A DNA stretch of 64,000 nucleotides. Origin: an uncultured Spirochaetaceae bacterium (GTDB lineage: Bacteria > Spirochaetota > Spirochaetia > DSM-27196 > PWMO01). The notes under the pieces were generated by a model, which made no database searches, was not told the DNA's origin, and was given only the letters and a program-made list of their open reading frames with translations. The translations under genes were made by a program, and so were the position numbers. The stretch spans positions 4,994-68,993 of the forward strand of contig CAZZIE010000004.1 of NCBI GenBank assembly GCA_964654185.1, given 5' to 3'. Below are positions 3,215-23,605 of the stretch, in pieces; positions within the stretch are counted from its first letter, which is position 1; each line of letters opens with the position of its first letter.

Positions 3215-3347
3215 GGGATACACCTCCCTCTTTGGGATCACTATAGTTTGCTCCCGCATTGAATTGCAACGAAACGGCGCTGTTGAATCCGTGCTCGACG
3301 GCAACGTATACTGCAAGAATAGAAACGTCTCCACCGGGGAGGGAGAG

Positions 3348-8782: not shown

Positions 8783-10273
8783 CTACGCGGTTTCGGCCAG
8801 CCGTTTGTTGATTGCCGCGGCCGCCTGTCTCCCCTGCCCCATGGCAAGGATCACCGTGGCTGCTCCCAGGACGATGTCGCCGCCGGCGAAGACGCCGGGG
8901 ATGGAGGTCTCGCCATTATCGTCGGTGATGATGTTTCCGCGGCGGTTCACCTTCAGTTCGGGAGTGGTTGTAACCAGGAGCGGGTTGGATTCGTTGCCGA
9001 TCGAGACGATGACCGTATCCACGTCAATGACGTTCTCGCTGTCGGGTATGGCGACGGGACGGCGGCGGCCGGAGTCGTCCGGTTCGCCGAGCTCATAGTC
9101 CAGGCACTCAATGCCGACAACGCGCTCGTCCTCATTCCCGAGAATGCGCTTCGGGCTCTTGAGGAAGTGGAAGCGGATCCCCTCCTCCTCGGCGTGATCC
9201 ACCTCTTCGGCCCGGGCGGGCATCTCCGTGCGGGTACGCCGATACACGACATTCACCTCTTCGGCGCCCAGGCGCACCGCCGTCCGGGCGGCGTCCATGG
9301 CGACATTGCCGCCGCCGAGAACCGCCACCTTCCGGGGCTGGAAGATCGGCGTGTCGGCCCTGTCACGGTCGTAGGCCTTCATCAGATTGCTCCGGGTGAG
9401 GTACTCGTTCGCCGCGAAGACACCGACGAGGTTCTCCCCGGGAATGCTCATGAACTTCGGCAGTCCCGCACCGGTGCCGATGAAGATGGCGTCGTAGCCG
9501 TCCTTCTCAACCAGATCCCGGAGCTTGCGCGTCCGGCCGACCAGAAAGTTCGTCTTGATCTCGACACCCATGGCTTCCAGGGTCTTGATCTCGTCTCCGA
9601 CGATGCGCTTGGGAAGCCGAAACTCCGGAATGCCGTAGATCATGACCCCGCCGGGCTTGTGGAACGCCTCGAAGAGGGTGACCTCGTGACCCTCCCGGCG
9701 AATGTCCGCGGCGGCGGTGATGGAAGCGGGACCGCTGCCGATCACGCCGACCTTCTTACCGGTCGCCGGCTTCACCGTCGGCGAGGCGCCGTCGGCGTGC
9801 TCTGCGCCCCAGTCAGCCACGTAGCGCTCGAGCCGCCCGATCGATACGGACTTGAAGATGTCCTTCAGCGACTTACCTACGGTGCAGTACTCCTGACACT
9901 GATTCTCCTGGGGGCACACGCGACCGCAGATCGCCGGGAGAAGACTGGTCTCCTTGATGACTGCAAGCGACTTTGCGTAGTCGCGCTCGGCTATCGCCTT
10001 AATGAATCCTGGAATGTCGATGGCAACGGGACAGCCCTTGATGCAGGGTGCATTCTTGCACTGGAGGCAGCGTTCCGCTTCGACGAGGGCCTGCTCCTCG
10101 AAGTAGCCGTAGGTTACTTCTTCCATATTGCCGCGACGCTCCCGCGGATCCTGGCTCGGCATGTCCTGCTGGGGTATCTTCAAGCGATCCTTGTTCTTCA
10201 TGGTCGCCGGGTCAATGCTCTTGAGAACGTCCTGCGCTTCCGCCTGCAACTCTTCCGCTGATCGAAAACTCAC
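8783..10273 (-). CDS. nfnB: GltD/NfnB-type NADPH-dependent FAD/[4Fe-4S] oxidoreductase. This is the large subunit of an NfnAB/SudAB-like pair, often annotated as homotetrameric glutamate synthase.
   Basis: EAERCLQCKNAPCIKGCPVAIDIPGFI...LPAICGRVCPQENQCQEYC, then two Rossmann motifs (VGVIGSGPASI, VAVLGGGNVAMDAART) and FAGGD. GTG start with GGAAGGGAG upstream. Confidence 0.8.
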   Translation of the reverse strand: MSFRSAEELQAEAQDVLKSIDPATMKNKDRLKIPQQDMPSQDPRERRGNMEEVTYGYFEEQALVEAERCLQCKNAPCIKGCPVAIDIPGFIKAIAERDYAKSLAVIKETSLLPAICGRVCPQENQCQEYCTVGKSLKDIFKSVSIGRLERYVADWGAEHADGASPTVKPATGKKVGVIGSGPASITAAADIRREGHEVTLFEAFHKPGGVMIYGIPEFRLPKRIVGDEIKTLEAMGVEIKTNFLVGRTRKLRDLVEKDGYDAIFIGTGAGLPKFMSIPGENLVGVFAANEYLTRSNLMKAYDRDRADTPIFQPRKVAVLGGGNVAMDAARTAVRLGAEEVNVVYRRTRTEMPARAEEVDHAEEEGIRFHFLKSPKRILGNEDERVVGIECLDYELGEPDDSGRRRPVAIPDSENVIDVDTVIVSIGNESNPLLVTTTPELKVNRRGNIITDDNGETSIPGVFAGGDIVLGAATVILAMGQGRQAAAAINKRLAETA

Positions 10274-10359: not shown

Positions 10360-11226
10360 CTACTTCTGGGCAGCCTGCCGCTCCTCCGCGTCTGCCACGG
10401 CGTCGAGCCTGCACGCCTTGCTGGCTTCCGTTTCCTGGTCCTTGTAGGCGGCGAGACGCCGCAACATGTTGTCGAAGTCCACGGCATGCCCGTCGAACTC
10501 CGGGCCGTCCACGCAGACGAACTTCGTCTCACCCCCGACGGTGACCCGGCATCCCCCGCACATGCCGGTACCATCGACCATGATGGTATTGAGGGATACC
10601 ACCGTATGCACCTCGTAGGGACGGGTCGTTTCGGCGGCGAACTTCATCATGATCGGCGGCCCGATTGCCACGGCGAGATCCGGGGGCGGGTCCTGCTCGC
10701 ACTGCTCCTTCAGGGGCTCGGTCACGAGGGCCTTCCGTCCGTAGGAGCCGTCGTCGGTCACCACGATGAGCTCATCCGCAATGGCGCCCATCTCCTCTTC
10801 CAGGATGACGAGCTCCTTCGTCCGCGCCCCAATGATGATGGTAACGTGATTGCCCGCCTCCTTGAGCGCCTGGGCGATCGGATGCAGCGGTGCCACACCG
10901 ATTCCGCCACCGACGCAGACGACCCGGCCGAAGTTCTCAATGTGGGTGGGCTGCCCCAGAGGTCCGAGGACGTTCGCAATGGCGTCCCCCGCCTGATACG
11001 TGGCGAGCACCCTGGTGGTCTTGCCCACCGCCTGGAAGATGAGAGTGATCGACCCCTCGTCGGGGTCCGCATCCGCAATGGTCAGAGGAATGCGTTCGCC
11101 GAAGTTGTCGTCGAGCTGCAGGATGACGAACTGCCCGGGGTGTCGCTCCCGGGAAATCTCGGGAGCGCGAATGCGCATCTTGAAGACGTTTTCCGAAAGC
11201 TGCGTTCGTTCCAGTATTTCCTTCAT
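10360..11226 (-). CDS. nfnA: NfnA/SudB-type ferredoxin-NADP-reductase-like FAD/[2Fe-2S] subunit
   Basis: Start at MKEILERTQLSENVFKMRIRAPEI (ATG at 11226). FNR-like fold motifs are present (RIPLTIAD, VCVGGGIGVAPL) with a C-terminal Cys cluster (GTGMCGGCRV...FVCVDGPEF). Confidence 0.8.
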   Translation of the reverse strand: MKEILERTQLSENVFKMRIRAPEISRERHPGQFVILQLDDNFGERIPLTIADADPDEGSITLIFQAVGKTTRVLATYQAGDAIANVLGPLGQPTHIENFGRVVCVGGGIGVAPLHPIAQALKEAGNHVTIIIGARTKELVILEEEMGAIADELIVVTDDGSYGRKALVTEPLKEQCEQDPPPDLAVAIGPPIMMKFAAETTRPYEVHTVVSLNTIMVDGTGMCGGCRVTVGGETKFVCVDGPEFDGHAVDFDNMLRRLAAYKDQETEASKACRLDAVADAEERQAAQK

Positions 11227-11394: not shown

Positions 11395-11517
11395 AAGAGT
11401 CCATATTGCTCTGATCATACGGCGGCAGGTCGTCCGTGTAAAGGGTCTGGTTGAAACATCCTACCTTTCCCGATCACCATTCGCGCCTTCCGGGGCTTTC
11501 CGCCCGGCCGCTGCCGA

Positions 11518-13320
11518 TCAGATTCTTCGACGCTGTGCATTCAGCCCCAGGAGCGTGGCATCAATGCCCTTGGCGGCCTGGTGGCCGTTGGCAATTGCAC
11601 TGATCGCGTCGCGCTTGGTGTTGGTAATGTCGCCACCGGCGAATACCTTAGGATCGCCGGTTGCCCCGAACTTGTCTACCGTCACCCGGCCGCGGTCGAC
11701 GGTGATCTTTGCCAGCGCCTCCTCCGGCAGGAAGGAGTAGTCCGCATCCTGGCCGATCGCCGAGATAACGGAGTCGAAGACCTCCCGGTGCTCGGAGCCC
11801 TCGATCAAGACGGGCTTCGGACGCTTCCCCTCCCCCTGGTCGACCATCTCCGCCTCGCCCCAGACGAAGGTCGCCTGGGTACTCCGGGACGCATCCTCCA
11901 CGGCAATCGGAACGGCCTGGGGAACGATCCGCACGCCCTCGTCGATGGCCTCATCGATCTCCTCCTCGTCGGCGGGCATGTCCTGGATGCGGCGCCGGTA
12001 GAGCACCGTGACCTCCGCCCCCAGGCGGCGGGCGGTCCGGGCGGCGTCCATGGCGACGTTGCCGCCGCCGATGACGGCGACCTTCTCTCCCATACCGGGA
12101 TCGCGCCCGGCGGTAACGTCGTCGAGAACCGTGATTCCCGACAGTACCCGCGGGTGGTCCTCTCCGGGAATGCCCATCTGATAGGCGTTGGGAAGACCGG
12201 TGGAGATGAAGACCGCGTCGTAGTCCCGATAGATGTCTTCGAAGGTGAGGTCGCGGCCAACCTGGAACTCCTGCTTGATCTCGACCCCGAGGGAGCGGAT
12301 GTAGTCGATGTCCTTGTTGATCTGATCGTAGGGAAGCCGGTACTCCGGGATTCCGTAACGAAGCATGCCGCCGGGGAGGTCCCGGGAGTCGTACACGGTG
12401 ATCTCGTAACCCAGGAGACGCAGATAGTAGGCGGCGCTCAGGCCGCCGGGGCCGGAGCCGACGACTGCCACGCGCTTGCCGTTGGACTCTTCCGCGCTGC
12501 CCAGGATCATCTCGTAGTCCCGGGAGTAGATCTGGTCCGCAATGTAGCGCTTGAGCCAGCGGATCGAGATGGCCTCCCCCTCGCCGTGGCGCTTTGCACA
12601 GACGCTCTCACAGGTGTGCGTACACACCCGCCCGCACGATGCCGGAAGCGGGTTGGATTCATAGACGATGCGCAGGCCTTCTCCGAGATCATCGTCGCGG
12701 ATGGCGCGAATGTAGCCGGGCACGTCCATGTGCGCCGGGCAGGTGGCAATGCAGATGCCGCAGGCGACGCAGCGGTCCGCCTCTTTCCGGGCCTGCTCCT
12801 CGGAATAGCCCTGCACGAGCTCCCGGAAGCTGGTCAGACCCTCCTCGGGAGCGAGCGTCTCCATCTTCACGCGCTCCTTCTCCAGGAGCTCGTACCCCGG
12901 GGCGCGCTCGTACCCGAGGTCGCTCTCGTCCCAGGCCTTCCGGTCCTCTCCGGGAACGTAGCGGAAGACGTCCGGGTCGATGTCGACCCAGATGTACTCG
13001 TTGCTCATGCCCAGAGAGCCGGTGGGGCAGATGTCGACGCAGAGGGCGCACCAGCAGCAGCGGCCGTAGTCCACCATGGGGCGCAGACCGCTGTCGCCGT
13101 GACGCGGCTTGTGCCGGACCGACTCCACCAGATCGATGGCCTCGTTCTGGCACACGGTCTCGCAGGTCCCGCATCCAATGCACATCTCGCCGTCGTTGGT
13201 GTGAAAGCCCCGGTACCGGGGCGCCCCGGGCCGATCATCAATGGGGTTCTTCGTCGTATAGGGCTTCTCGAAGGCGCGCTTCCACACCGAAAAGGGTGCA
13301 ATCAGGTCTTTGACACTCAT
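11518..13320 (-). CDS. fusion protein: NuoI/MbxN-like 2x[4Fe-4S] ferredoxin subunit (N-terminal, about 170 aa) joined to a GltD/NfnB-like FAD-NAD(P)H oxidoreductase (C-terminal, about 430 aa)
   Basis: N-terminal part: CIGCGTCETVCQNEAI ... CCWCALCVDICPTGSL (NuoI-type). C-terminal part: EADRCVACGICIATCPAHMDVPGYI...ASCGRVCTHTCESVC, VAVVGSGPGGLSAAYYL, VAVIGGGNVAMDAART, FAGGD. It is the last gene of the coupled operon. Confidence 0.85.
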   Translation of the reverse strand: MSVKDLIAPFSVWKRAFEKPYTTKNPIDDRPGAPRYRGFHTNDGEMCIGCGTCETVCQNEAIDLVESVRHKPRHGDSGLRPMVDYGRCCWCALCVDICPTGSLGMSNEYIWVDIDPDVFRYVPGEDRKAWDESDLGYERAPGYELLEKERVKMETLAPEEGLTSFRELVQGYSEEQARKEADRCVACGICIATCPAHMDVPGYIRAIRDDDLGEGLRIVYESNPLPASCGRVCTHTCESVCAKRHGEGEAISIRWLKRYIADQIYSRDYEMILGSAEESNGKRVAVVGSGPGGLSAAYYLRLLGYEITVYDSRDLPGGMLRYGIPEYRLPYDQINKDIDYIRSLGVEIKQEFQVGRDLTFEDIYRDYDAVFISTGLPNAYQMGIPGEDHPRVLSGITVLDDVTAGRDPGMGEKVAVIGGGNVAMDAARTARRLGAEVTVLYRRRIQDMPADEEEIDEAIDEGVRIVPQAVPIAVEDASRSTQATFVWGEAEMVDQGEGKRPKPVLIEGSEHREVFDSVISAIGQDADYSFLPEEALAKITVDRGRVTVDKFGATGDPKVFAGGDITNTKRDAISAIANGHQAAKGIDATLLGLNAQRRRI

Positions 13321-13323
13321 GAT

Positions 13324-14559
13324 CTACCTCTCGATCTCCGGCGGATAGGTGTGGAGGCTGACCATGAGCCCCGCAACGTCGGCGATATTTGTTCCCACCG
13401 CCAGCTTTTCCAGCACCACCATGGCGTGGGTGTATGAGGGGCCGCGCACATACACGCGCCGGGGGTATCCGGTACCGTCGGCAACAAGGAAGTACCCGTA
13501 TTCGCCCCGGGTACACTCCGCGCGACGGTAGGTCTGCCCGGGTGGGATCTTCCAGTGCAGGACGTTCGGCAGCCTAGTGTGAATGGCGCCCTCCGCGGGA
13601 ATGCGGTCGGCGATCTGTCTGATCAGTGAGATCGCCTGGTACATCTCCCGAAAGCGCACCCGGGCGCGGGCGTAGGCATCCGACTCTGTCTCAGTGACGA
13701 TGTCAAAGTCCAACTGATCGTAGCCGAGATACGGCGCATCCTTGCGGATGTCCCGGGCGACGCCGGCGGCTCGCGCATTCGGACCGGTAATGCCGTAGCG
13801 GTCGATCATGTCCGGGGTGATCACGCCGAGCCCCTTTGCCCGGGACTTGAAGACGGCGTTGGAGAACATGGCAAGGTCGATCTCCCCGAGGAGCTTCTCC
13901 ACTGTGGCCAGGACCGCCTCGAGACGATCCCGGAAGCCCTCCGGAAGATCCGCGCGAACTCCGCCGGGGATGATGTACATGTGGTAGATGCGGCCACCCG
14001 AGAGCTCCTCGAAGAGATCGAGGATGTAGTCGCGGTGGACCATGGTCCACTGGCCGATGGTGCCCATGCCGAAGGAGCCCGCCTGGCCGCCGATCCACTG
14101 AAGGAAGCTCGTCAGCCGCGCCATCTCCAGCGTCAGGAGGCGGATCCAGTTGGCCTTCTCCGGCACCTCGATCCCGGCGAGCTCCTCCACGGTGGCGGCG
14201 TAGAGATACTCGTTGAAATCGGGTTCCGGCACGCAGATCCGGCACACTAACGGGAAGTTCTGAATGAAGGTGCGCCGCTCCATGAGCTTCTCGAAGCCCC
14301 GGTGGAGATATCCCACGTGGGTCCGGCACTCCACGACGGTGTCTCCTTCCACGGTGAGCTCCAGGGACATGTTGCCGGTAATGCCGGGATGGTTCGGGCC
14401 CTGCCAGAGCTTGAGATACTTCCCGCTCTCGAGATCGATCCGCGGCGCGCCGGTGTCGGAGCCCTCATTCCGGTCCGGGGCGTCGAACTCGCGATAGGTC
14501 GGCTTCTCGTAGATCTCCCGGGAGTCGATGTCCCGGAACAGATGGGTGTACGTGCTCAT
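13324..14559 (-). CDS. NuoD / [NiFe]-hydrogenase large-subunit homologue lacking the C-terminal NiFe ligands (MbxL/MbsL-like)
   Basis: WQGPNHPGITG...HVGYLHRGFEKL is typical of the family. The N-terminal motif reads VCRICVPEP where RICGIC is expected. The C-terminus reads SLHTYPPEIER where DPCxxCxxR is expected. Confidence 0.85.
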   Translation of the reverse strand: MSTYTHLFRDIDSREIYEKPTYREFDAPDRNEGSDTGAPRIDLESGKYLKLWQGPNHPGITGNMSLELTVEGDTVVECRTHVGYLHRGFEKLMERRTFIQNFPLVCRICVPEPDFNEYLYAATVEELAGIEVPEKANWIRLLTLEMARLTSFLQWIGGQAGSFGMGTIGQWTMVHRDYILDLFEELSGGRIYHMYIIPGGVRADLPEGFRDRLEAVLATVEKLLGEIDLAMFSNAVFKSRAKGLGVITPDMIDRYGITGPNARAAGVARDIRKDAPYLGYDQLDFDIVTETESDAYARARVRFREMYQAISLIRQIADRIPAEGAIHTRLPNVLHWKIPPGQTYRRAECTRGEYGYFLVADGTGYPRRVYVRGPSYTHAMVVLEKLAVGTNIADVAGLMVSLHTYPPEIER

Positions 14560-15173
14560 GACGTGCTCTCCCCGTCGGTGCCGGCACCGCCCGCCTCCGG
14601 AGAGGCCGGGTGCGGTCCGTCGATCTCCGCGTAGAGGGCGCGCTTCATGTGCTCCCGGACTACGGTTTTCTTGCGCCCGGGGCGCGGGAAGTAGCGCGCC
14701 TCCGAATAGGCGCGGGTATCGAACTCCCGGCGCATGGGGGGAATGTCGTTCCAGCTCTCCAGGATGAAGGGCTCATCCACCCGGGGGCTCCCGGGGAAGT
14801 CGATGCCGAACATCTCCTTGAGCTCCCGCTGGTAGGTGCTTGCCTGCGCCCAGAGGAGGTGGATCGACTCCATCTCCGCGGCGTCCCGGGGAACCTCCAC
14901 CTCGACGCCCACGTCCCGTCGGCCGGTGTAGTCGTGGAGCAGATAGGTGAGACGAAAGGTCCCCTGCTCGATCACGTCGACCGCCGTCAGGAAGACCAGA
15001 TGGGTGAACCCCTCGACGTCGCGAAGGTGGCGGATCATGGGAACGGCGTGCGACCGGGAGATCCGGATGAACGCCTGACCGGCGTGACTGATCCGCCCGT
15101 TGTCGGTCTCGAAACGCTGAGCAAGGTCCTGGAGAAGCTCCTCAAGGGGGCGAGTGGCCGTATGCATCGTCAT
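14556..15173 (-). CDS. NuoC/MbxK-like 30-kDa subunit
   Basis: HLVFLTAVD...YQRELKEMFGIDFPG pattern. The start overlaps neighbouring genes by 4 nt. Confidence 0.8.
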   Translation of the reverse strand: MTMHTATRPLEELLQDLAQRFETDNGRISHAGQAFIRISRSHAVPMIRHLRDVEGFTHLVFLTAVDVIEQGTFRLTYLLHDYTGRRDVGVEVEVPRDAAEMESIHLLWAQASTYQRELKEMFGIDFPGSPRVDEPFILESWNDIPPMRREFDTRAYSEARYFPRPGRKKTVVREHMKRALYAEIDGPHPASPEAGGAGTDGESTS

Positions 15174-15191
15174 AAATGATCTCCTCCGGCC

Positions 15192-15962
15192 CTACCAGTT
15201 GTAGTCCGGCATGTTCCAGTCGGTGATGACCCTCTTCTGATTCGCCTTGTACCAGTCGAAGTTCTCGGCGTAGTAGTTGGCCCCTTCGGCTTCGCCGGCG
15301 CGGATCAGTTGCTTCAGCTTCTGGAATCCCGCGAGGATGGCTTCAGGGCGCGGCATGCAGCCGGCGACGTAGACATCCACGGGGATGTAGTGATCGAGGC
15401 GGTTGATGGTGTTGTAGCTGTCCCAGTACATGCCGCCGTTGATGGTGCAGCTCCCGAGGCCGATCACGAACTTCGGGTTCTGCATCTGCTCGTAGCTCCG
15501 GACGATACGCTTGAGGGTCTTCAGGGAGACGTAACCCCCAATGATGAAGACGCTCGACTGCCGCGGCGTGGGGCGTCCCTGAATGCCGTAGCGGTAGGCG
15601 TCGAACCGGGCGGTCATGAGGGGACGGAGCTCGATTGCGCCGCAGCCGGTGCCGAAGCCGAGGATCCAGAGGCTCTGGGAGCGGGCCCAGTTGAGGAATT
15701 TCTCAATGATGCCGCGGAAGGGGGCGACCGCCTCGGGGCGGGCGTCACAGAAGCAGGCACGGTCCTGGATCGGCATGTCGAGGTTGGGAAGGCGCACGCC
15801 GTCTCCCGTGATGGGCAGGGTGCGCTTCTCTTCCGGGTCCGACGCGGCGCTTGTGTCCGGGGCCGTTGCCCGCGCCGCTGCCGTGCCCGGCGCGCCGCCC
15901 GGCGCATTGGCCGACGCGTTGGCCGCCGCCTCCGCAGAGGTGCCGTCTGTGTGGTCGCTCAT
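15192..15962 (-). CDS. NuoB/MbxJ-like [4Fe-4S] subunit with an Ala/Pro-rich N-terminal extension of about 60 aa
   Basis: SLWILGFGTGCGAIE, VIGLGSCTINGG and VAGCMPRPE. Only one Cys sits where complex I has CC. The ATG at 15962 overlaps the TGA of the upstream gene (ATGA), which supports the long form. Confidence 0.8.
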   Translation of the reverse strand: MSDHTDGTSAEAAANASANAPGGAPGTAAARATAPDTSAASDPEEKRTLPITGDGVRLPNLDMPIQDRACFCDARPEAVAPFRGIIEKFLNWARSQSLWILGFGTGCGAIELRPLMTARFDAYRYGIQGRPTPRQSSVFIIGGYVSLKTLKRIVRSYEQMQNPKFVIGLGSCTINGGMYWDSYNTINRLDHYIPVDVYVAGCMPRPEAILAGFQKLKQLIRAGEAEGANYYAENFDWYKANQKRVITDWNMPDYNW

Positions 15963-16885
15963 GCAACGCTCCTTATGATCTGCAGCGCGACGGCGATAAC
16001 GCCGATCGCTGCGGGGATCTTCAAGAAGAAGGTGATCGAATCCTGAACGCGGAAGCGTGGGAAGGAGACTCCCACGAAAACCGTGAACAGATAGATGAGA
16101 AAGGTCTTGATGACCATGGCAAAGATGTTGGTCGCTCCACCGAAGAAGAGGTTCATGTAGAGGATCAGCTTTGCGCCGTTGAAGATGGCGCGGTTGGACT
16201 GGAGCATGCCCATGTAGGAGCCCTGATACTCCGTCGGCGGGCCCATGGGGATCTCCTGCGGTGCGGTGACGACACTGAAGGGGTTACCCATGGTCATACC
16301 CAGGAAGGCGACCATTCCGGCAATGGTGGCCAGAGGATTGGCAAAGAGGTTCCAGCTGAGAATCCCTCCCTGCTGGACCGCGACGATTTCGGTTATCGAC
16401 AGGGTGTTGTGCTGGATTGCCAGGGACACGATCGCCAGGGTGAAGGGCACCTCGAAGGCGGTCATCTGCGCAAGGCCCCGGGCAACGCCGATGGCGCTGT
16501 ACGGGTGCCCGCCCTCACCGGCTCCGAGGGCCATGCCGAGCTGGCCGAAGAAGATGAAGTACACCACCAGGAGCAGGTCGCCGGCGAAGTGGAAGTTCCC
16601 GAACACCGTGGAGCCGAAGATGACGGGAATAAACATGAGCGTGCCGATGCCGCCGGCGAGGCGGAAGACCGGCCCCAGATAGAACATGATCCCGTGGCTT
16701 ATGGTTGTCCGCTTGGCGTTGTTCTTGATGATGTCGATGTACGGCTGCCACACGGGGATGCCGATCCGACCTTGGACCCGGGCGCGGATGCGGGCGGTGG
16801 TTCCCATGAGAAGAATCCCGTAGTTGAAGACCACGAAGAGGGTAATGGCGGCGTACAGGACGTGGAGCAAGATCGGCTCGGTCAT
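15959..16885 (-). CDS. NuoH/HycD/MbxM-like membrane subunit
   Basis: A polytopic membrane protein with RIRARVQGRIGIPVWQPYIDIIK at the N-terminus, which is the NuoH/HycD signature region. Confidence 0.8.
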   Translation of the reverse strand: MTEPILLHVLYAAITLFVVFNYGILLMGTTARIRARVQGRIGIPVWQPYIDIIKNNAKRTTISHGIMFYLGPVFRLAGGIGTLMFIPVIFGSTVFGNFHFAGDLLLVVYFIFFGQLGMALGAGEGGHPYSAIGVARGLAQMTAFEVPFTLAIVSLAIQHNTLSITEIVAVQQGGILSWNLFANPLATIAGMVAFLGMTMGNPFSVVTAPQEIPMGPPTEYQGSYMGMLQSNRAIFNGAKLILYMNLFFGGATNIFAMVIKTFLIYLFTVFVGVSFPRFRVQDSITFFLKIPAAIGVIAVALQIIRSVA

Positions 16886-19800
16886 GAGAGACCTCCTGCA
16901 ATGACGTAGAGAGCGACAACAAAGAGGAGAATGTGGAGCGCGTAGGTCTGGCCGTTGCCGGAGTAGATGCGCCGCATGGCGGAGCCCGCGGCGTTCACCC
17001 CGTCACGGACCCCCGCCCAGAAGGCGATCACGCCGGGTCGTGAGAGAAAGCCCAACGCCTTGTCGTAGTGGGCGAAGAAGTGATGGGCGAAGTGGGTGGT
17101 TTCCGGGCGATCCGGGCGCTCCGCAGCGTAGACAATGTTGAACTGTCCGACCGCCTGGGGACGGCGCATGACGACCATGAGCCACACGAGGGGCACAATG
17201 AACACCACCATGGTGACGTACATGACCAGGTTGCCGTTCCAGTATCCCAGCGTCGAAAGCACCGTGTAGCGCTCCATGACCGTAGCCGTACCGAGGTAGG
17301 CGCCGGTGGTCGAGAGGAGTGGCTGCACGAGCAGATTCGGATACATGGAGACGCCCATGAGCCCCCCGGCCAGAAGCAACTGCGGCAGGATGAGCCAGAA
17401 GGGCGCCTCCCGCACCTCGCGATGCGTGTCCTTCAGCTGTCCCAGAAAGATCGTGTGGATGAACTTGAAGAGGTAGAGAAACGCAATGGTGCTGGCAAAG
17501 AAGGCAAGGGCCGCCTGGAAGTACCACCCGCGCTCGAGCAGCGCGGTGTAGAGCATCCATTTGCCGCCGAACCCTGCCAGGGGCGGAACCCCCGACACCG
17601 CAATGATGGCCATGAGCGACGATATGAAAGTCAGGGGCATCTTCTTGATGAGCCCGCCGAGCTCGTGCATCCGGCTCGTTCCGGTCCTGAAGATGACTCC
17701 GGCCACGGCCAGGAAGAGCATTCCCTTGAAGATCAGGTGGAGCACCGAGAGATAGAGCCCCGTGGTCCATCCGAGCTGACTCGCCATGGCGACGGCCATG
17801 ATGATGTAGCCGAGCTGGCTCATGGAGGAGTACGCCAGGAGATACTTCACATCGCTCTGGTACACCGCGAGGAGCGCACCGAAGAGGGCCGTGAGTGCGC
17901 CGATCCAGCCGACGATTGCCAGCAAGAGATCCGCAGCGCCGGCGGTCGTAACGAGGAGCATGCCGACAACCAGGAGTCCCGCAACGGGCACCTTGCTCAG
18001 AATGCCGGAGAAAACCGGAGACAGGTCGTCCTCCGCCTCGGCGTAGGCGCCGGGAAGCCAGATCTGCACCCCGACGGCACCGGCTTTGACCAGAAATCCC
18101 GCAACAATGAGGATGAGCGCGGCCAGCGAGGCGCCGGCACTCACGCCCCCGGCCGCGCCGGTGCCGGCGTTGAGGGCCCCGGCGGTCGCGCCGGACAACG
18201 CGGAAACCGCGAGCCCCGCCACGGCCGGTCCCAGCAGAGCCGCTGCATCCGGAGCCAGGGTCGCGGAGACGACGTGGGGAAAGCCGAAGGCGACGCCGGT
18301 GAGCCCCAGGTAGACCAGCCCCACCATGAGAAGGAACGCCCCGCCGACGGAGAAGACAAGATAGCGAAGGGCCGCCCGGGCGGCGCCGTGTCGCCTCAAC
18401 AAGAGAAGGTAGGACGCCAGCGTAACCGACTCGAAGGCGAGAAAGAATCCCGCCGAGCTCTCGGCGGCAAGGAGGGAAACCATGCTCAAGGTGAGTGCGG
18501 CAACCAGGGGAAAGAGCCCCGTTGCGCGCTTCCTCCGGTTCAGCAGCGCAAGAGTGGCAATCACGCCGCCTCCCGCGAAGATTCCCAGAAAAACAACCCC
18601 CATGCCTTCGAGCATCGGATAGACCACCCAGCCGAACCCGGCAATCGCCGCCACGGTGAGCAGGGCCTTCACCCGGGCCGGCAACCAGTCGAGAACCCAC
18701 AACGCCACAGCCGCGGCAAAGGGCACGAAGAGGAGCACCTCCCGGAAGCCGAACAGCCAGGCCGACAGAGGGCCCAGGACGAGCAGGATCACCGCAAACA
18801 CCCCGGGAGGATCGTCGGCCACGCCGGTCCGGGTCGCGCCGGTGCGGGCCTCGCCGGTGCGGGCCTCGCCGGTCCGTACCGGTGCGGCCGCCGCGGCGGC
18901 GTGGGCAGTCGCCGTGACACCGCGGGCACCCGCCGCAGGCAGCGCGTCGTCAGCGGCCGCCGCGGATCGCGCCCTCTCGTCCGCGACGGGTTCACCAGCG
19001 TCCTCCCCGAGCACCTGCGGAGTCAGCGCCGCCCCGAGAAAGCGGAAGAGATACGTCGCCTCGAGGAGGGAGCCCAGGAGGATCACGACGATCCAGAGAA
19101 CTGAGCCCGCCCCGGCAAGCTGAGTAATGAGCGTCCACTTTGCCCAGAATGCCGGAAAGGGAGGAAGGCCTGCGAGGGCGATTACGAAGAGTCCCGCGGC
19201 AATCAGCAGACCGCGGCGAACTCGTGACCCGTCACCGCCACGGCGCAGCCGGCTTGCCAGACCGGCCAATCCCTCGAAGCCCAGGGAGGAGGCGATCCAG
19301 AAGAGGCCGCCCTTTGCCAGGAGATGATTCACCAGGAGACCGCCGCCTACCAGAAGGGACGTGCCGACGCTCCAGTCCTGCAGATGTGCCAGCGAGACTG
19401 TCGCCACGACCAGACCGAGTTGCGCCACCGAGGAGTATCCGAGCATTCGCCGGACCTGACGCTGCCGGAGTCCCATCAGGTTGGAAAGACCGAATGTCAG
19501 TACACCGACACCAACGAGGACACTCAGCTGTGGGCCAGGAATCATCGGCACAATCTTGTAGAGGGCAGCAACAATGCCGCCGGAGGTGCCCACGGAGATG
19601 ATTGATGCAACTGCCGGCTCGGAGGCTTCATATACATCGAGCGCCCATCCGTTCGCCGGGAAGGGCTTCAGCTCAATCAACAGCGCAGCGACCACCAGGA
19701 ACACGGCGACGAATCCCGCGCCGCCGGTAAGAACCTCGCTCCCCTGGGCCGTCAGGATCATGCCGTCAATGTTCAGGGTTCCGGTCACGCGATAGAGGTA

Positions 19801-20331
19801 GATCGTGCCAATCAGAAACAGTGCCGATGCCAGACCTCCCGCTATGACATACTTGAAGCCCGCACTGAGACCGCGTTGATCGTCGTGCAGGGCAATCATG
19901 CCGTACGTGGCAATGGCGGTGATCTCCAGGAACACGAACACGTTGAAGAGGTCCCGGGTGAGGATCAATCCGTTGGTCCCCATGGCCATCATGAGCAAGA
20001 GGATCTGCGCGCCCAGATGACCGTGAAGGAATCGCCTCGTGAGAAGAACGCCCGATCCGAGGAAGGCCAGATTCACTGCAAGGGCGAGCCCGGCCTCGAG
20101 GGTCCCCATGCGCAGGTTGATCGAAAAGGGCGGCGCAAACCCCGCCGTCAGCACCTCCGGAGCGGCCGCGCCGCCCAGGAGCGCAACGAGCCACGCACCG
20201 GAGAGCCCGACCATCCAGGCAAGGGTTCCAAGGGTCAGCCCGAGGGAGAGACCCCGGCCGAGCCGGTCGGCAAGTCCGAGAAGAAATGCAACCAGGAGCG
20301 CGATTGCCGGCAGAAAGATCGGGCTTACCAT
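16882..20331 (-). CDS. fused double NuoN/MrpD-type antiporter-like subunit (MbxH'-MbxH equivalents in one 1149-aa polypeptide)
   Basis: Two complete Proton_antipo_M-like modules (about residues 1-450 and 520-1149) are joined by an Ala/Arg/Thr/Gly low-complexity linker (...RTGEARTGEARTGATRTG...). Confidence 0.8.
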   Translation of the reverse strand: MVSPIFLPAIALLVAFLLGLADRLGRGLSLGLTLGTLAWMVGLSGAWLVALLGGAAAPEVLTAGFAPPFSINLRMGTLEAGLALAVNLAFLGSGVLLTRRFLHGHLGAQILLLMMAMGTNGLILTRDLFNVFVFLEITAIATYGMIALHDDQRGLSAGFKYVIAGGLASALFLIGTIYLYRVTGTLNIDGMILTAQGSEVLTGGAGFVAVFLVVAALLIELKPFPANGWALDVYEASEPAVASIISVGTSGGIVAALYKIVPMIPGPQLSVLVGVGVLTFGLSNLMGLRQRQVRRMLGYSSVAQLGLVVATVSLAHLQDWSVGTSLLVGGGLLVNHLLAKGGLFWIASSLGFEGLAGLASRLRRGGDGSRVRRGLLIAAGLFVIALAGLPPFPAFWAKWTLITQLAGAGSVLWIVVILLGSLLEATYLFRFLGAALTPQVLGEDAGEPVADERARSAAAADDALPAAGARGVTATAHAAAAAAPVRTGEARTGEARTGATRTGVADDPPGVFAVILLVLGPLSAWLFGFREVLLFVPFAAAVALWVLDWLPARVKALLTVAAIAGFGWVVYPMLEGMGVVFLGIFAGGGVIATLALLNRRKRATGLFPLVAALTLSMVSLLAAESSAGFFLAFESVTLASYLLLLRRHGAARAALRYLVFSVGGAFLLMVGLVYLGLTGVAFGFPHVVSATLAPDAAALLGPAVAGLAVSALSGATAGALNAGTGAAGGVSAGASLAALILIVAGFLVKAGAVGVQIWLPGAYAEAEDDLSPVFSGILSKVPVAGLLVVGMLLVTTAGAADLLLAIVGWIGALTALFGALLAVYQSDVKYLLAYSSMSQLGYIIMAVAMASQLGWTTGLYLSVLHLIFKGMLFLAVAGVIFRTGTSRMHELGGLIKKMPLTFISSLMAIIAVSGVPPLAGFGGKWMLYTALLERGWYFQAALAFFASTIAFLYLFKFIHTIFLGQLKDTHREVREAPFWLILPQLLLAGGLMGVSMYPNLLVQPLLSTTGAYLGTATVMERYTVLSTLGYWNGNLVMYVTMVVFIVPLVWLMVVMRRPQAVGQFNIVYAAERPDRPETTHFAHHFFAHYDKALGFLSRPGVIAFWAGVRDGVNAAGSAMRRIYSGNGQTYALHILLFVVALYVIAGGLS
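18823..18882. repeat. 15-bp tandem repeat (about 4 degenerate copies) encoding the inter-module linker
   Basis: GCCGGTGCGGGCCTC at 18838-18852 and 18853-18867, with degenerate copies on both sides. It encodes (RTGEA)n on the minus strand. Confidence 0.8.
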
Positions 20332-20750
20332 TTCAGCTCCTTGAAGTCGTCGATCTGGAGCGATCCCCGGCGATCGTGCAGCTGCACGGCGTAGACGAGC
20401 ATGAGGGCGGTGACAGCCAGCCCGATTACAATGGCGGTGAGCACCAGCGCCGACGGCACAGGATCAACCACCTGGGCGGCGGCCCCCTGAGCGGCGGTGG
20501 CCTGCGCGGCGCCGGCCTGAGCGGCGGCGGCCTGCGCGGCGCCCCGGCCGGCGGTGCCGAGGACGGCAACGGCTTCGTCCAGAATCGGGGCGGTGCGCCC
20601 GCGGATGTAGCCGATCGACACCATGACGAGGTGGATCCCGGTGTCGACGATCGAGAAGCCAATGATCATCTTCACGATGTTGCGCTGCGTGAGCATGCCC
20701 CACAGTCCAATGAGAATCAGCAGAAAGCCGAAGGCGGATACGATGGTCAT
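20325..20750 (-). CDS. MrpC/NuoK/MbxG-like small membrane subunit with a low-complexity loop insertion
   Basis: FGFLLILIGLWGMLTQRNIVKMIIGFSIVDTGIHL is MnhC/NuoK-like. It carries an inserted AAQAAAAQAGAAQATAAQGAAAQ stretch. Confidence 0.75.
   Translation of the reverse strand: MTIVSAFGFLLILIGLWGMLTQRNIVKMIIGFSIVDTGIHLVMVSIGYIRGRTAPILDEAVAVLGTAGRGAAQAAAAQAGAAQATAAQGAAAQVVDPVPSALVLTAIVIGLAVTALMLVYAVQLHDRRGSLQIDDFKELKW
20486..20545. repeat. 30-bp tandem duplication inside the MrpC-like gene
   Basis: CCTGAGCGGCGG(T/C)GGCCTGCGCGGCGCC at 20486-20513 and 20516-20543. Confidence 0.8.
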
Positions 20751-21598
20751 GGCGCCTCCCGATTGGGTTCGTGGGTATGCGCGGCTGCGGGATTTGCCCT
20801 CATACGGTCGAGAATGCCGGTGAGCTCCGCCCCGACTTTGAGACCGACCAGCGAGTAGATCACGGGAATTGCGCCGGCACTCAGGAGCATCCCGTATCGA
20901 CCGGGCGGCAACAGCCGTGCATCCAGAAAACCTGCAGCCAGCACGATGCCGAGAATGCCGATTATCACGTAGGCTCCGCCGGACATCGACTCGATGAAGG
21001 TCAGTATCCCGTGGCCGATGCGAGCGCGGCTCGCCGAGAGGAAGTGCAGGAGCGCCGCCGCGGCAACAAGGACTCCTCCCTGGAATCCTCCGCCCGGAGT
21101 CAGGTGGCCGTGAAGGAATATGTACACACCGAAGACGAGCACCAGGGGCATGAGAATCCGCGCCCCGCTGGTGAGAATCTCCGATGGCTCGGATCGCGAG
21201 GCGCTTTCGCGGTCCAGTCCCGACCCGACCTCGTCTCCGGGGAGTCCGTGCAGGGGCCGCCCGCGACCCGGGGCAATTGACCGCTCCGGGGAAGCGGGCC
21301 CCGGCACGGCGCCGGTGAGCGGTCCGTGAGCATCGGGCCCAAAGCTGCGGCGCAACAGGAACCCGATCCCCGCGGTAGCGATGAAGAGAACCGCAACTTC
21401 CCCGAGTGTATCGAGTCCCCGATACGTGACTACCACCGCGGTGACGACGTTCTGGGCTCCGAGCTCATCCGGCGTGCGAGTTACGTAGCCCTCGGCAACG
21501 CGGGAGAGCTCGGCAGTCGGCGGCACGTCCCGGAGGAGCGGAAAGAGCAGCACTGCCACACCGGCGACCGCGACGATGGCAAACAATCTGGCGATCAT
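20747..21598 (-). CDS. MnhB/MrpB-family membrane subunit (MbxF-like, with a MbhE-like N-terminal part)
   Basis: NVVTAVVVTYRGLDTLGEVAVLF and FLHGHLTPGGGFQGG are MnhB-family signatures. They are separated by a Pro/Gly/Ser-rich insertion. Confidence 0.75.
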   Translation of the reverse strand: MIARLFAIVAVAGVAVLLFPLLRDVPPTAELSRVAEGYVTRTPDELGAQNVVTAVVVTYRGLDTLGEVAVLFIATAGIGFLLRRSFGPDAHGPLTGAVPGPASPERSIAPGRGRPLHGLPGDEVGSGLDRESASRSEPSEILTSGARILMPLVLVFGVYIFLHGHLTPGGGFQGGVLVAAAALLHFLSASRARIGHGILTFIESMSGGAYVIIGILGIVLAAGFLDARLLPPGRYGMLLSAGAIPVIYSLVGLKVGAELTGILDRMRANPAAAHTHEPNREAP

Positions 21599-21930
21599 GA
21601 GTCGGTGCCCTCCCCTGCTGGACCGTCGGTTCCCGTGGCGGTTTCAGTGGCGGCCCCGGTGGCGCGTCCAGCCTCGGCGCCGTGTCCGCCGCTGCGGGTC
21701 AGCCGGATTCGGTTCAGCGCCAGGAGGAAGACCACCGTGGTCAGAGCTGAGCCTATGGCGGCCTCCGTCATGGCGACGTCCGGTGCTGCCAGCACCAGAA
21801 AGACAATGCTCGCCAGAAGACTGACAACCCCTGCGGAGATGATCGCTGCCACCAGACTCTTCTGATACAGCGCAAATACCGCAGAGATCACCATGACGAT
21901 TCCCAGCACGATCAGTAATGCATCGATCAT
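21595..21930 (-). CDS. MbhD/DUF4040-like small membrane subunit (MrpA C-terminal-like)
   Basis: Three TM helices (...AAPDVAMTEAAIGSALTTVVFLLAL...) plus a Gly/Ala/Thr-rich tail. The 4-nt overlaps on both sides place it in the operon. Confidence 0.6.
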   Translation of the reverse strand: MIDALLIVLGIVMVISAVFALYQKSLVAAIISAGVVSLLASIVFLVLAAPDVAMTEAAIGSALTTVVFLLALNRIRLTRSGGHGAEAGRATGAATETATGTDGPAGEGTDS

Positions 21931-22340
21931 GGCGACTCCTTTCTGGACCCGCCGGCGCTCGGCCCGGCCACGCTCGACGTGCCCCCGGCGCTCGGGGCGG
22001 CGTCGGCGTCAGCGTCAGCGCCGCTGCCCGCCAGGTCGTCCTGTACCGTTTGCGACGCGAGCGGGATGCCCGCCGCGTGAGCCGCCCGTATGAGGGCGTG
22101 CGAAGATATCGGATTGGTGAATACAATGAACACGATCAGCAGGGCCAGGCGCGGAAGCCAGCTCGGAAAGGCAATACCGACGCCCGCGAGGAACAGGATG
22201 GACCCGAGCGTCGTTGCCTTGGTGCCCGCCTGCATGCGGTTGTACACGTCCGGCATGCGAACAAGACCGAGGGCAGCCAGCAGCAGGAAGATCGCCCCTG
22301 CAATGCTCACCAGACCTCCGATTACGCCAAGAAGATCCAT
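21927..22340 (-). CDS. MnhG/MrpG-like subunit (MbxC-like)
   Basis: Start at MDLLGVIGGLVSIAGAIFLLLAALGLVRMPDVYNRMQAGTKATTLG (MnhG signature). The ATG at 22340 abuts the stop of the upstream gene (22342-22344). Confidence 0.8.
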   Translation of the reverse strand: MDLLGVIGGLVSIAGAIFLLLAALGLVRMPDVYNRMQAGTKATTLGSILFLAGVGIAFPSWLPRLALLIVFIVFTNPISSHALIRAAHAAGIPLASQTVQDDLAGSGADADADAAPSAGGTSSVAGPSAGGSRKESP

Positions 22341-22341
22341 G

Positions 22342-22602
22342 CTAGAGCCCCCTTTCCAGGTAGCGGGCAACCGCCACAACGCCGAGGAAACTGACGAGCC
22401 CGTAGACCAGGGCGACATCAATGTAGATTACTCGCCCGCTCACCACCGCAATGAAGGCAATGATCGATATGGAGATGATGGTCATTCCATCCAGACCGAC
22501 GGTGCGGTCCGCAGCGGATGGACCCGCCAGCACTCGCGCAAACGCCAGGACGGCGGCCACGACGGCAATGCCCCCGGCAACCCAGAACAGGGTCTCAACC
22601 AC
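22342..22602 (-). CDS. MnhF/MrpF-like subunit (MbxB-like)
   Basis: 86 aa with three TM helices (RVLAGPSAADRTVGLDGMTII...ARYLERG), which is the MrpF pattern. Confidence 0.75.
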   Translation of the reverse strand: MVETLFWVAGGIAVVAAVLAFARVLAGPSAADRTVGLDGMTIISISIIAFIAVVSGRVIYIDVALVYGLVSFLGVVAVARYLERGL

Positions 22603-23092
22603 AGATCACCTCCAGGTAGCGTTCGAACTTCTCGACAATGCGTTGCGTGGTTGCCTCGATATCGTCGCCTTCAACATTGATCCAGTGGATGTAGAGGATT
22701 TCGCCCCGGCTCTCAACGGTTATGGTCCCCGGTGTCAGCGTGATGGAGTTGGCAAGAATCAGCCGTCCCAGACGACTCTTGAGTCTGGTGCGGACCCTGA
22801 CGATACCTGGACGAATCGGAAGCTGCGGGGCAAGCACCCGGAACGCCACGTCGAGATTGGCGCGGATCAGCTCGCCGAAGAAGACAAAGGCGTAGGCGAT
22901 CGCGAACAGGACGGATCTCGGGGAAATGCGAAAATCACCGAGCACTTCCGCCGCCCCCAGGGGCAACAGCATAACCAGCAGCGTGACAATGCCGGCGGCT
23001 CCCAACTCCTGAAGGTTCAGCGGGTACGCAAGGGCGGACCACACGACCATCAGGAGCAGGGCCAACAACACTCTTCCTCGCACGAGTGTCAC
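22595..23092 (-). CDS. MnhE/MrpE-like subunit (MbxA-like), first gene of the operon
   Basis: ANLDVAFRVL...ANSITLTPGTITV...LYIHWINV is the MnhE pattern. The preferred start is GTG at 23092 (GGGGAG 5 nt upstream). The track start at 23131 has no RBS. Confidence 0.75.
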   Translation of the reverse strand: MTLVRGRVLLALLLMVVWSALAYPLNLQELGAAGIVTLLVMLLPLGAAEVLGDFRISPRSVLFAIAYAFVFFGELIRANLDVAFRVLAPQLPIRPGIVRVRTRLKSRLGRLILANSITLTPGTITVESRGEILYIHWINVEGDDIEATTQRIVEKFERYLEVICG

Positions 23093-23179
23093 AGGCGCTC
23101 CCCATACCCGTCTGCAACTCGGTCGGCACACTCAAGGGTCAGGCGACGAAACGCACAGGCCGGCCGCTTCGATGGGCAC

Positions 23180-23191
23180 TTATCTATAAAA
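23180..23191. promoter_or_regulatory. TTATCTATAAAA box in the AT-rich region upstream of the Mbx-like operon
   Basis: This 12-mer is identical to 11383-11394. It is embedded in an AT-rich island (23178-23220) within an otherwise GC-rich sequence. Confidence 0.45.
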
Positions 23192-23298
23192 GGATTTCTA
23201 TATACGAATGATTGTATATGAGCGCGCCGGTTCTGTAAAGGAGAATCTACGGCGAAGCTACCGGTAAGAAGCGAAGATGTGGGCCGGCCCGGATGAGG

Positions 23299-23604
23299 TC
23301 ATACTCCGTCGGATCGCAGCAGGGACGACCAGACCTCGCCATCGAAGCCGAAGTAGAGCTCCCCGTCGATCTCCAGCACTGGGTAGATCGGTTTGGCACC
23401 GTACGCAATCTCGAAGTCTTCCTGGATCTGATGCCGCCTTTCCGCGGGTAATCGATCGAGGAGAATCGCCTGGACCGAGAGCCCTTCCCTGGTCAGGAAC
23501 TCTCTGGCGCGGCCACAGTGCGAGCAGAACGAAAGCCCGTACACGTATGCGTTGGACACAACGTGTTCGCCGGGCAACTGGACATAGGGGACATCCGGGT
23601 ACAC
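23299..23604 (-). CDS. glutaredoxin/NrdH-like thioredoxin-fold protein (CSHC motif)
   Basis: VYGLSFCSHCGRAREFL...PVLEIDGELYFGF. GTG start at 23604 with AGGAGGG 4 nt upstream. The gene directly abuts the stop (23606) of the upstream gene. Confidence 0.7.
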   Translation of the reverse strand: MYPDVPYVQLPGEHVVSNAYVYGLSFCSHCGRAREFLTREGLSVQAILLDRLPAERRHQIQEDFEIAYGAKPIYPVLEIDGELYFGFDGEVWSSLLRSDGV

Positions 23605-23605
23605 T

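Follow-up and report, generated by a model that had tools for sequence, protein, structure and literature searches.

Introduction

The closest relative of known structure to the twelve-gene operon treated here is MBS (formerly Mbx), the membrane-bound sulfane-sulfur reductase of Pyrococcus furiosus (structure 6u8y). The operon lies on a 64,000-nucleotide stretch of DNA, hereafter the window, from an uncultured Spirochaetaceae bacterium (GenBank assembly GCA_964654185.1, contig CAZZIE010000004.1, positions 4,994 to 68,993 of the forward strand). Because its gene order, its subunit similarities and the three-cysteine cluster of its J subunit all agree with MBS, we place it, as a bacterial representative, in the MBS/Mbx branch of the complex I superfamily. 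Its last subunit is fused to an additional flavoprotein domain, and much of what follows concerns the reaction that this fusion may serve.

Bacterial relatives of MBS have been described at the genome level. An mbx-like operon in which a gltD-related flavoprotein replaces the plain NuoI subunit was reported in 2015 from Thermotoga and from proteobacteria (PMC4758237). The cluster of Thermotoga maritima has been named a 13-subunit MBX (PMC9431562), an MBX is also found in Mesotoga (bioRxiv 10.1101/322537), and the Mrp-Mbx of the Riftia symbiont is listed among complexes of unknown function and direction (PMC11636981). The hypothesis current for "Mbx" before 2018, a ferredoxin:NADP+ reaction, is still applied to Thermotogae (PMC4758237; bioRxiv 10.1101/322537). 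The literature searched held no report of biochemical or structural work on a bacterial version. A preliminary description of the window called the system poorly described or undescribed, which holds for its biochemistry; its architecture has been in print since 2015 (PMC4758237), and an NCBIfam model of the fusion, NF010590, exists. The gene layout is widespread, and the window provides one more example of it rather than a new kind.

Flavoproteins related to the fused domain are known from soluble bifurcating enzymes, namely StnC of Sporomusa ovata StnABC and NfnA of Thermococcus sibiricus NfnABC, in which a GltD domain is fused to a NuoG-like domain. According to published structures and mutants, a lysine ligand to an iron-sulfur cluster marks the non-bifurcating, NADPH-oxidising GltD domain of StnC and NfnA, a domain that feeds an Fe-S chain with single electrons, and a glutamate at that position marks the bifurcating NfnL (PMC10482914, PMC12018979). 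As far as we found, this Lys/Glu signature, a division into NADPH-type and NADH-type variants, the universal loss of a fourth J cysteine in one subclade and the extent of the system across phyla have apparently not been described before for the bacterial family.

For comparison, species-representative genomes were scanned with an alignment of the L subunit, which gave at least 80 loci, and these were annotated by BLASTP with the proteins of the window. Phyla are named below after the labels of metagenome-assembled genomes (MAGs), which may be wrong.

Identity of the operon

Twelve consecutive open reading frames (ORFs) with high third-position GC occupy positions 11518-23131 of the minus strand, each at the place where the preliminary description had put it. 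Profile searches matched the families proposed there gene by gene, in the Pfam order MNHE, MrpF_PhaF, PhaG_MnhG, MbhD, MbhE plus MnhB, Oxidored_q2, two Proton_antipo_M stretches, NADHdh, Oxidored_q6, Complex1_30kDa, Complex1_49kDa and a NuoI-type domain with Fer4_20 and Pyr_redox_2. This is the archaeal mbx order A-B-C-D-E-G-H-H'-M-J-K-L-N, with H and H' in a single ORF. That it is not a nuo, hyc or ech operon, as had also been proposed, agrees with the gene order, the subunit scores and the ligand patterns.

When solved homologues were searched, an MBS chain of 6u8y gave the highest score for all subunits tested: L (328 bits, against 220 for Nqo4, 134 for MbhL and 105 for HycE), J (224 bits, against about 130 (132) for NdhK and 89 for MbhJ), M (144 bits, against 67 for MbhM and 57 for NdhA), E (161 bits, against 58 for MbhF), H/H', and the N domain (residues 7-131; 86 bits, against 50 for NuoI). 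The suggested phylogeny of the NuoD-like subunit points the same way. In a neighbor-joining tree, built without bootstrap, the window sequence and Thermococcales MbsL fall in one clade with bacterial sequences, apart from Nuo-like, Ehr-like and hydrogenase-like sequences.

The likeness to Pyrococcus MBS includes the gene order, two antiporter-like pumps combined with an Mrp Na+/H+ module, an MbsE-type E subunit, the C-terminal extension of H', a proximal cluster with three cysteine ligands, and an L subunit that has neither the NiFe site nor the quinone His/Tyr pair. The window differs in that H and H' are one polypeptide and in that N, rather than being a free-standing di-cluster subunit, bears a 450-residue NADPH flavoprotein that is absent from Thermococcales. 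It differs also in that MbsL C385 is replaced by Tyr and MbsJ C25 by Gly, in that J has an N-terminal extension, and in that L is only about 41% identical. The electron donor is probably NADPH, instead of or besides ferredoxin.

The flavoprotein fused to subunit N

A flavoprotein extension had been noted in the preliminary description, and a GltD-type domain was indeed found on the N subunit. Residues 149-595 score 310 bits against 9n5u_A (NfnA of T. sibiricus NfnABC), 291 against 9bov_A (StnC-type) and 283 against 4ylf_B (NfnB of T. maritima); the scores of the flavoprotein part are 279 bits against NfnL of P. furiosus and 196 against GltD. The full-length model NF010590 matches the fusion at 680 bits, below its cut-off of 946. 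Judged from its residues, the flavoprotein part carries two [4Fe-4S] clusters, FAD and an NADPH site. The whole fusion protein has 17 cysteines, among them the 16 expected ligands of four predicted [4Fe-4S] clusters, and these are conserved with no exception or hardly any among 53 homologues (C89 in 52 of the 53).

The cluster adjoining the FAD has a non-cysteine ligand, Lys257 (in WLK257RY), which none of the 53 homologues lacks. Its counterpart is K170 (ELK170RF) in the alignment with 9bov_A and K165 in T. sibiricus NfnA. The separate nfnB gene of the window encodes Glu at this position and has a partner nfnA, and thus passes as NfnSL-type, which the fused domain with its Lys257 does not. 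Since the ligand is Lys, as in StnC and NfnA(Bfu), and not Glu, it argues against bifurcation at the fused flavin, which we judge to be non-bifurcating.

Like StnC and T. sibiricus NfnA, the fused domain would hold FAD and two [4Fe-4S] clusters and would pass single electrons into a long Fe-S chain, and the Lys ligand is common to all three. In those enzymes the GltD domain is joined to a NuoG-like domain, whereas in the window that domain is absent and the partner is a NuoI/MbsN-type domain of a membrane complex; StnC Cys114 is replaced by Val.

The nucleotide-binding motif VLYRRR, of the NADPH type, is found in the fusion protein of the window, in T. sibiricus NfnA (9n5u_A) and in the nfnB product of the window. 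In 34 of the 53 homologues a six-residue insertion occurs and T-x-L-E stands in place of YRR. Most relatives are of this form, and it was noted for loci L004, L006, L008, L010-L019, L022, L023, L025, L033, L037 and L045-L066. An acidic residue after the second Rossmann strand usually indicates NADH, and the T-x-L-E motif suggests specificity for NADH rather than NADPH. The two motif types cut across the subclades with fused and with split H and H'.

In some proteobacterial loci the ORF for the fusion is longer (961 residues in L011, 912 in L012 and 955 in L057), perhaps through an extra domain or as an artefact of calling ORFs from the first start codon.

The peripheral arm and the active-site chamber

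Subunit J has exactly three cysteine ligands for its cluster, C107, C172 and C202 (MbsJ C28, C93 and C123), and they are invariant in 69 related sequences. With just three such ligands, one iron of the cluster would be left open, by analogy with MBS. The position of MbsJ C25, a non-ligand residue that is not needed for activity (PMC7684303), is Gly104 in the window, and each of the 26 sequences from the subclade with fused H and H' likewise has Gly there.

The L subunit was described at first as having lost its NiFe ligands. Three of the four are replaced, by E112, Y405 (MbsL C385) and E408, and the first is kept as C109 (MbsL C85); a true hydrogenase in the same alignment (locus L076) reads CGIC ... 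CIAC. The positions of the Nqo4 quinone ligands H38 and Y87 hold Thr and Val. Because three NiFe ligands and both quinone ligands are replaced, L is, by its residues, no hydrogenase, and no quinone reductase of the canonical kind either. A group 4 [NiFe] hydrogenase (MBH, Ech or Hyc) was rejected on the single retained cysteine ligand and the low MbhL and HycE scores.

Complex I or NDH-1 was rejected as well. With complex I (Nuo) and cyanobacterial NDH-1 the operon shares homologous H, B, C, D, I and antiporter-like subunits and a nucleotide-oxidising module predicted at the tip of the peripheral arm, but the operon contains no genes for NuoE/F/G, NuoA, NuoJ or NuoL, includes the small Mrp subunits, lacks the quinone ligands and has another gene order. 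The score ranking agrees, and L stays below the cut-off of the NuoD model TIGR01962 (310 bits against 459). The PGAP model NF004739 would label it NuoD all the same (403 bits against a cut-off of 360).

Across the family no subunits are better conserved than J and L. Their identity to the window is 72% and 64% among members of the same subclade and 58% and 51% among those with split H, and H and H' stand well under these values at 42% and about 31%. We read this conservation as arguing for a working active site, with chemistry still occurring at the chamber formed by J, L and M.

Several additional cysteines were observed here. In the fused-HH' subclade the N-terminal extension of J (residues 55-80) has a conserved Y-x-C motif with Cys72, which co-occurs with Cys349 and Tyr405 of L; the corresponding residues of sister sequences are Ser/Leu, Ser/Ala and Cys. 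L also has an extra Cys106 three residues before Cys109, forming a CxxC. These cysteines are not universal, and they may reflect clade-specific thiol chemistry near the chamber or neutral drift.

The membrane arm

The Mrp-type genes are translationally coupled to the genes for M, J, K, L and N, and so are not a stand-alone Mrp antiporter. The MnhE-like subunit is 41-59% identical across the loci compared. The gene first described as MnhB-like does encode an MnhB domain, in the MbhE plus MnhB arrangement of MbsE; since MbsE is already so arranged, this is no new fusion.

The preliminary description had counted two antiporter-like pump modules, as in MBS, and both were found in one protein of 1149 residues. 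The H chain of MBS (6u8y_H) aligns with its residues 7-247, and the H' chain (6u8y_X; 185 bits), over its full length, with residues 518-1144. The second alignment shows the conserved charged residues of the pump axis and includes the C-terminal extension, one of three coupling loops of MBS. The linker between H and H' is encoded by a 15-nt in-frame unit repeated four times at 18817-18876 and giving a TGEAR-type repeat. An assembly or frameshift artefact was considered and rejected; because the same single ORF of about 1040-1050 residues recurs in more than 20 independent assemblies, the fusion is taken as genuine.

Low-complexity stretches occur in several operon proteins. A tandem 15/30-nt repeat at 20471-20545, in frame, encodes the Ala/Gln-rich insert of the MnhC-like subunit, and Ala/Gly/Pro-rich inserts or tails are present in the E insert, at the N-terminus of J and at the C-termini of D and C.

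Distribution and phylogeny

A survey of synteny, which the preliminary description had recommended, found the order A-B-C-D-E-G-H-H'-M-J-K-L-N~flavoprotein in at least about 60 loci from many bacterial phyla. The N-flavoprotein fusion is present in nearly all the bacterial loci listed, and a plain N was seen in Thermococcales (L067 and L068; L 41% identical) and in a single Synergistota locus. Full-length relatives of the fusion protein are numerous, at 60-92% identity; those with names come from Spirochaetota (Marispirochaeta, Oceanispirochaeta, Pleomorphochaeta), and their annotation goes no further than "FAD-dependent oxidoreductase" or "glutamate synthase small chain." Among the matches listed, the closest is a MAG contig (L081; GCA_964623865.1) at 92%, which has the same synteny.

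The H-H' fusion, judged by where it occurs, marks the subclade that includes the window. This subclade (HH' about 1040 residues; L at least 55% identical) comprises Spirochaetota, Cloacimonadota, Bacteroidales, Thermoanaerobaculia and beta- and gammaproteobacteria. The split-H subclade (L 47-56% identical) comprises Bacteroidales, WOR-3, Hydrothermota, Planctomycetota, Thermotogae and sulfur-oxidising gammaproteobacterial symbionts (Thiodiazotropha and Sedimenticola, for instance). Split-H loci have 13 genes and mostly the NADH-like motif, in contrast to the window with its fused HH' and NADPH-type motif. The Thermotogae locus (L061) contains all the parts, with split H and H', an NADH-like motif and the J-K-L-N block placed ahead of the Mrp block. 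The MBX clusters described from T. maritima, Mesotoga prima and the Riftia symbiont are of the same family as the operon of the window and have the N-flavoprotein fusion in common with it (PMC4758237).

Operon boundaries and neighboring genes

The junctions between the twelve genes, in operon order, are -8, +1, -4, -4, -4, -7, -4, -4, +18, -4 and +3 nt. The overlaps of 4 or 8 nt and gaps of at most 18 nt that had been described thus hold for the most part, the MnhC/HH' overlap being 7 nt. The +1 junction presumes that MnhG starts at the ATG at 22340, which is preceded by the Shine-Dalgarno-like sequence AAAGGGGG; a mechanically chosen TTG start would give an overlap of 80 nt. Between positions 8000 and 24500 just two sigma-70-like promoter matches were found, one in each of the two intergenic gaps of the coding strand. 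The pair suggests a twelve-gene unit and, with a candidate promoter in the gap before nfnA, a separate nfnAB transcription unit. Because genes for the repressor Rex precede five of the related loci, the Rex operator TTGTGAAnnnnTTCACAA was sought upstream of the operon with up to 3 mismatches, and no site was found near 23131-23300. All features are collected in Table 1.

Table 1. Features of the operon and its flanks in the window
Feature	Position	Strand	Basis and remarks
MbsA/MnhE-like membrane subunit	22595..23131	-	Pfam MNHE 2.2e-36; true start probably 23071 or 23050
MbsB/MrpF-like subunit	22342..22602	-	Pfam MrpF_PhaF 1.7e-17; overlaps the MnhE gene by 8 nt
MbsC/MnhG-like subunit	21927..22340 (longer ORF to 22421)	-	Pfam PhaG_MnhG_YufB 2.7e-25, residues 40-115 of the longer ORF
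MbsD/MbhD (DUF4040)-like subunit	21595..21930	-	Pfam MbhD 1.4e-19
MbsE-type subunit	20747..21598	-	Pfam MbhE and MnhB domains; low-complexity insert of ~50 aa
MbsG/MnhC (NuoK-like) subunit	20325..20750	-	Pfam Oxidored_q2 2.6e-23; Ala/Gln-rich insert
Fused MbsH-MbsH' double antiporter-like pump, 1149 aa	16882..20331	-	Two Proton_antipo_M stretches
MbsM/NuoH-like membrane anchor of the peripheral arm	15959..16885	-	Pfam NADHdh 9.8e-45
MbsJ/NuoB-like subunit, proximal [4Fe-4S]	15192..15962	-	Oxidored_q6; N-terminal extension of ~80 aa
MbsK/NuoC-like subunit	14556..15173	-	Pfam Complex1_30kDa 3.1e-23
MbsL/NuoD-like large subunit	13324..14559	-	Complex1_49kDa; 6u8y_L best match
MbsN-like 2x[4Fe-4S] domain (~1-135) fused to GltD flavoprotein (~150-600)	11518..13320	-	Pfam Fer4, Fer4_20, Pyr_redox_2; 600 aa
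nfnA-like (NfnS) FAD/NAD-binding [2Fe-2S] subunit	10360..11226	-	DHODB_Fe-S_bind and NAD_binding_1; neighbor, outside the operon
nfnB-like (NfnL) subunit	8783..10273	-	Fer4_20 and Pyr_redox_2; TIGR01316 624 bits (cut-off 472); neighbor
Sigma-70-like promoter candidate, TTTACA-17-TACAAT	23211..23239	-	Upstream of the first gene; consensus match only
Second sigma-70-like promoter candidate, TTTACA-17-TATGAT	11414..11442	-	291-nt gap before nfnA; consensus match only

Downstream of the operon, where nfnAB-like genes had been reported to follow directly, both genes were found after a gap of 291 nt, counted from the probable nfnA start at 11226. The nfnA-like gene scores 415 bits against NCBIfam NF004862 (cut-off 220). 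Among the loci listed, nfnAB adjoins the operon solely in those with the NADPH-type motif, namely the window, L081, L003 and L035. Beyond the nfnAB side lies a gene for a CHASE2-sensor adenylate/guanylate cyclase of 1028 residues (503-3589, minus strand), which has the same position in L081. The most frequent neighbors elsewhere, again among the loci listed, are rubrerythrin-like genes downstream (15 loci), DHO_dh-like genes (7), Rex genes (5) and Crp/Fnr regulator genes (5).

The other neighbors in the window (glutaredoxin-like, epimerase, M23 peptidase, SIMPL, short-chain dehydrogenase/reductase and outer-membrane-like) were considered as parts of the system and rejected, as they do not accompany the operon in other loci. 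The glutaredoxin-like ORF is small (23299-23676, minus strand), has a CSHC motif and lies between the epimerase gene and the promoter-like site, overlapping the 3' end of the epimerase gene by about 70 nt. There is no room for such an ORF in L081, the 92% relative, and none is found beside the other loci examined; since it is missing even in L081, we place it outside the system.

Two further redox genes of the window were observed. One (34132-37485, minus strand) encodes a single chain of 1117 residues made up of a NuoE-like [2Fe-2S] domain, a NuoF-like FMN/[4Fe-4S] domain, Fer4_20 and a GltD-type Pyr_redox_2. It is the third GltD/NfnB-type module of the window and resembles parts of the Stn/NfnABC type in a single chain. 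The other (44927-47086, plus strand) encodes a molybdopterin protein of the xanthine dehydrogenase family.

Proposed function and alternatives

From the identity of the parts, their cofactor ligands and their conservation we infer an electron path, its direction, the acceptor and the ions pumped. In the reading that we favor, electrons of NADPH pass along a chain of seven cofactors, the final acceptor being sulfane sulfur or something comparably hydrophobic, and this reduction drives ion pumping; we hold it tentatively, at a little short of an even chance. NADPH would reduce the FAD of the fused flavoprotein, where no bifurcation would occur, and single electrons would then travel through the two clusters of the flavoprotein and the two of the N domain to the [4Fe-4S] cluster of J. 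In the hydrophobic chamber of J, L and M a polysulfide or organic polysulfane would be reductively cleaved, as in Pyrococcus MBS. Driven by this chemistry, H and H' would pump H+, while the Mrp module (A, B, C, D, E and G) would carry out Na+/H+ exchange. The flavoprotein would thus take the role that the NuoEFG module has in complex I, the adjoining NfnAB would supply the complex with NADPH made at the expense of NADH and reduced ferredoxin, and ferredoxin may also donate at the N domain.

The homology to MBS chains, the invariance of the J cysteines, the conservation of J and L, the ligand losses in L, Lys257, the YRR motif and the adjacency of nfnAB all support this scheme. Two reports on relatives support it as well: S0 brings about a 4.4-fold induction of mbxA in T. 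maritima (PMC9431562), and the Mrp-Mbx of the Riftia symbiont, like its sulfur-globule protein genes, has co-expression neighbors shared with the reductive tricarboxylic acid cycle and not with the Calvin-Benson-Bassham cycle (PMC11636981).

Several points weigh against the proposal that NADPH electrons reduce sulfane sulfur. The acceptor is suggested by homology to MBS alone, and no sulfur-handling genes adjoin the operon in the window. The NADH-like motif occurs in most of the family, so that the donor would not be uniform. The MbsL C85 and C385 positions vary here, the pair not being retained together; as both cysteines are dispensable for MBS activity (PMC7684303), the loss of C385 carries little weight. 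The span from NADPH (-320 mV) to polysulfide (about -260 mV) is estimated at about 60 mV at standard potentials, which would be too little for two or three pump modules. By the Nernst equation it would reach about 200 mV only at micromolar sulfide, so that low sulfide or a high NADPH/NADP+ ratio would be needed. Finally, a ferredoxin:NADP+ reaction is what most papers on Thermotogae take for granted.

That reaction is the substance of the main alternative, which we consider unlikely: an ion-translocating ferredoxin:NAD(P)+ oxidoreductase analogous to Rnf, in which ferredoxin would donate at the N domain, the flavoprotein would reduce NADP+, and a span of about 130-180 mV would pump Na+ or H+. 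N is the ferredoxin entry subunit in both MBH and MBS and is here joined straight to an NADP(H) flavoprotein; the reaction has been proposed in print (PMC4758237; bioRxiv 10.1101/322537), the nfnAB genes next door also connect ferredoxin with NADP(H), and the Rex genes upstream of five loci point to control by the NAD(H) redox state. Yet both substrates would then meet at the far tip of the peripheral arm, and the electrons would bypass the J cluster and the J/L/M chamber, at which all characterised members of the superfamily couple redox chemistry to pumping. The best conserved subunits, J and L, and the invariant J cysteines would be left without a role, a soluble N-flavoprotein fusion would suffice for the uncoupled reaction, and T. 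maritima already has a Na+-Rnf (PMC9431562).

The wiring could also be that of the favored reading with a different end. Electrons might reach another lipophilic or thiol-based acceptor, or they might flow in reverse, with the ion gradient driving the reduction of NAD(P)+ by sulfide or polysulfide in sulfur-oxidising autotrophs; we regard this as improbable. The diversity of the carriers, from fermenting Spirochaetota, Bacteroidales and Cloacimonadota to sulfur-oxidising symbionts such as Thiodiazotropha and Sedimenticola, would be explained, as would the existence of NADPH-type and NADH-type variants. The CxxC of L (Cys106/Cys109) and the co-variation of Cys349 with Tyr405 and J Cys72 hint at clade-specific thiol chemistry, and the direction in Endoriftia is stated as unknown (PMC11636981). 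However, no candidate acceptor is encoded near the loci examined, the extra cysteines are not conserved universally, and the recurrent rubrerythrin-like neighbor is uninformative on the substrate. Bifurcation or confurcation at the fused flavin, with one electron of NADPH going uphill to ferredoxin and one downhill to a membrane acceptor, seems to us very improbable. The scores of the flavoprotein against T. maritima NfnB and P. furiosus NfnL and the nfnA-like gene close downstream would suit it, but the diagnostic ligand is Lys and not Glu in every homologue (PMC10482914, PMC12018979), the best structural relatives (9n5u_A and 9bov_A) are non-bifurcating, and nfnA has its own partner nfnB and its own promoter-like site.

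Implications

It is possible, if still doubtful, that the bacterial MBS branch as a whole consists of widespread ion-pumping sulfane-sulfur reductases driven by NAD(P)H, in at least 10 phyla by MAG label, which might run in reverse in sulfur-oxidising autotrophs. The GltD-type module would then have been acquired independently of NuoEFG, as a second invention of an "N-module," and, by switching between NADPH and NADH, individual clades would adjust the redox pool that they respire. The Lys-versus-Glu signature, the split between NADPH-type and NADH-type motifs and the invariant three-cysteine J cluster provide handles for experiment, and cultured carriers exist. Among them are Thermotoga maritima, Mesotoga prima, Sedimenticola thiotaurini and Marispirochaeta aestuarii, the last with a fusion protein at 68% identity. 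Should the proposed reaction prove correct, many anaerobes, among them Spirochaetota, Bacteroidales, Cloacimonadota and Thermotogota, together with sulfur-storing symbionts, would own a respiratory enzyme that couples sulfur reduction directly to the pool of NAD(P)H and conserves energy, a step that metabolic models now omit or assign to an enzyme called ferredoxin:NADP+ oxidoreductase or "NuoD." The complex I superfamily would also have gained a pyridine-nucleotide input module twice, from unrelated flavoproteins.

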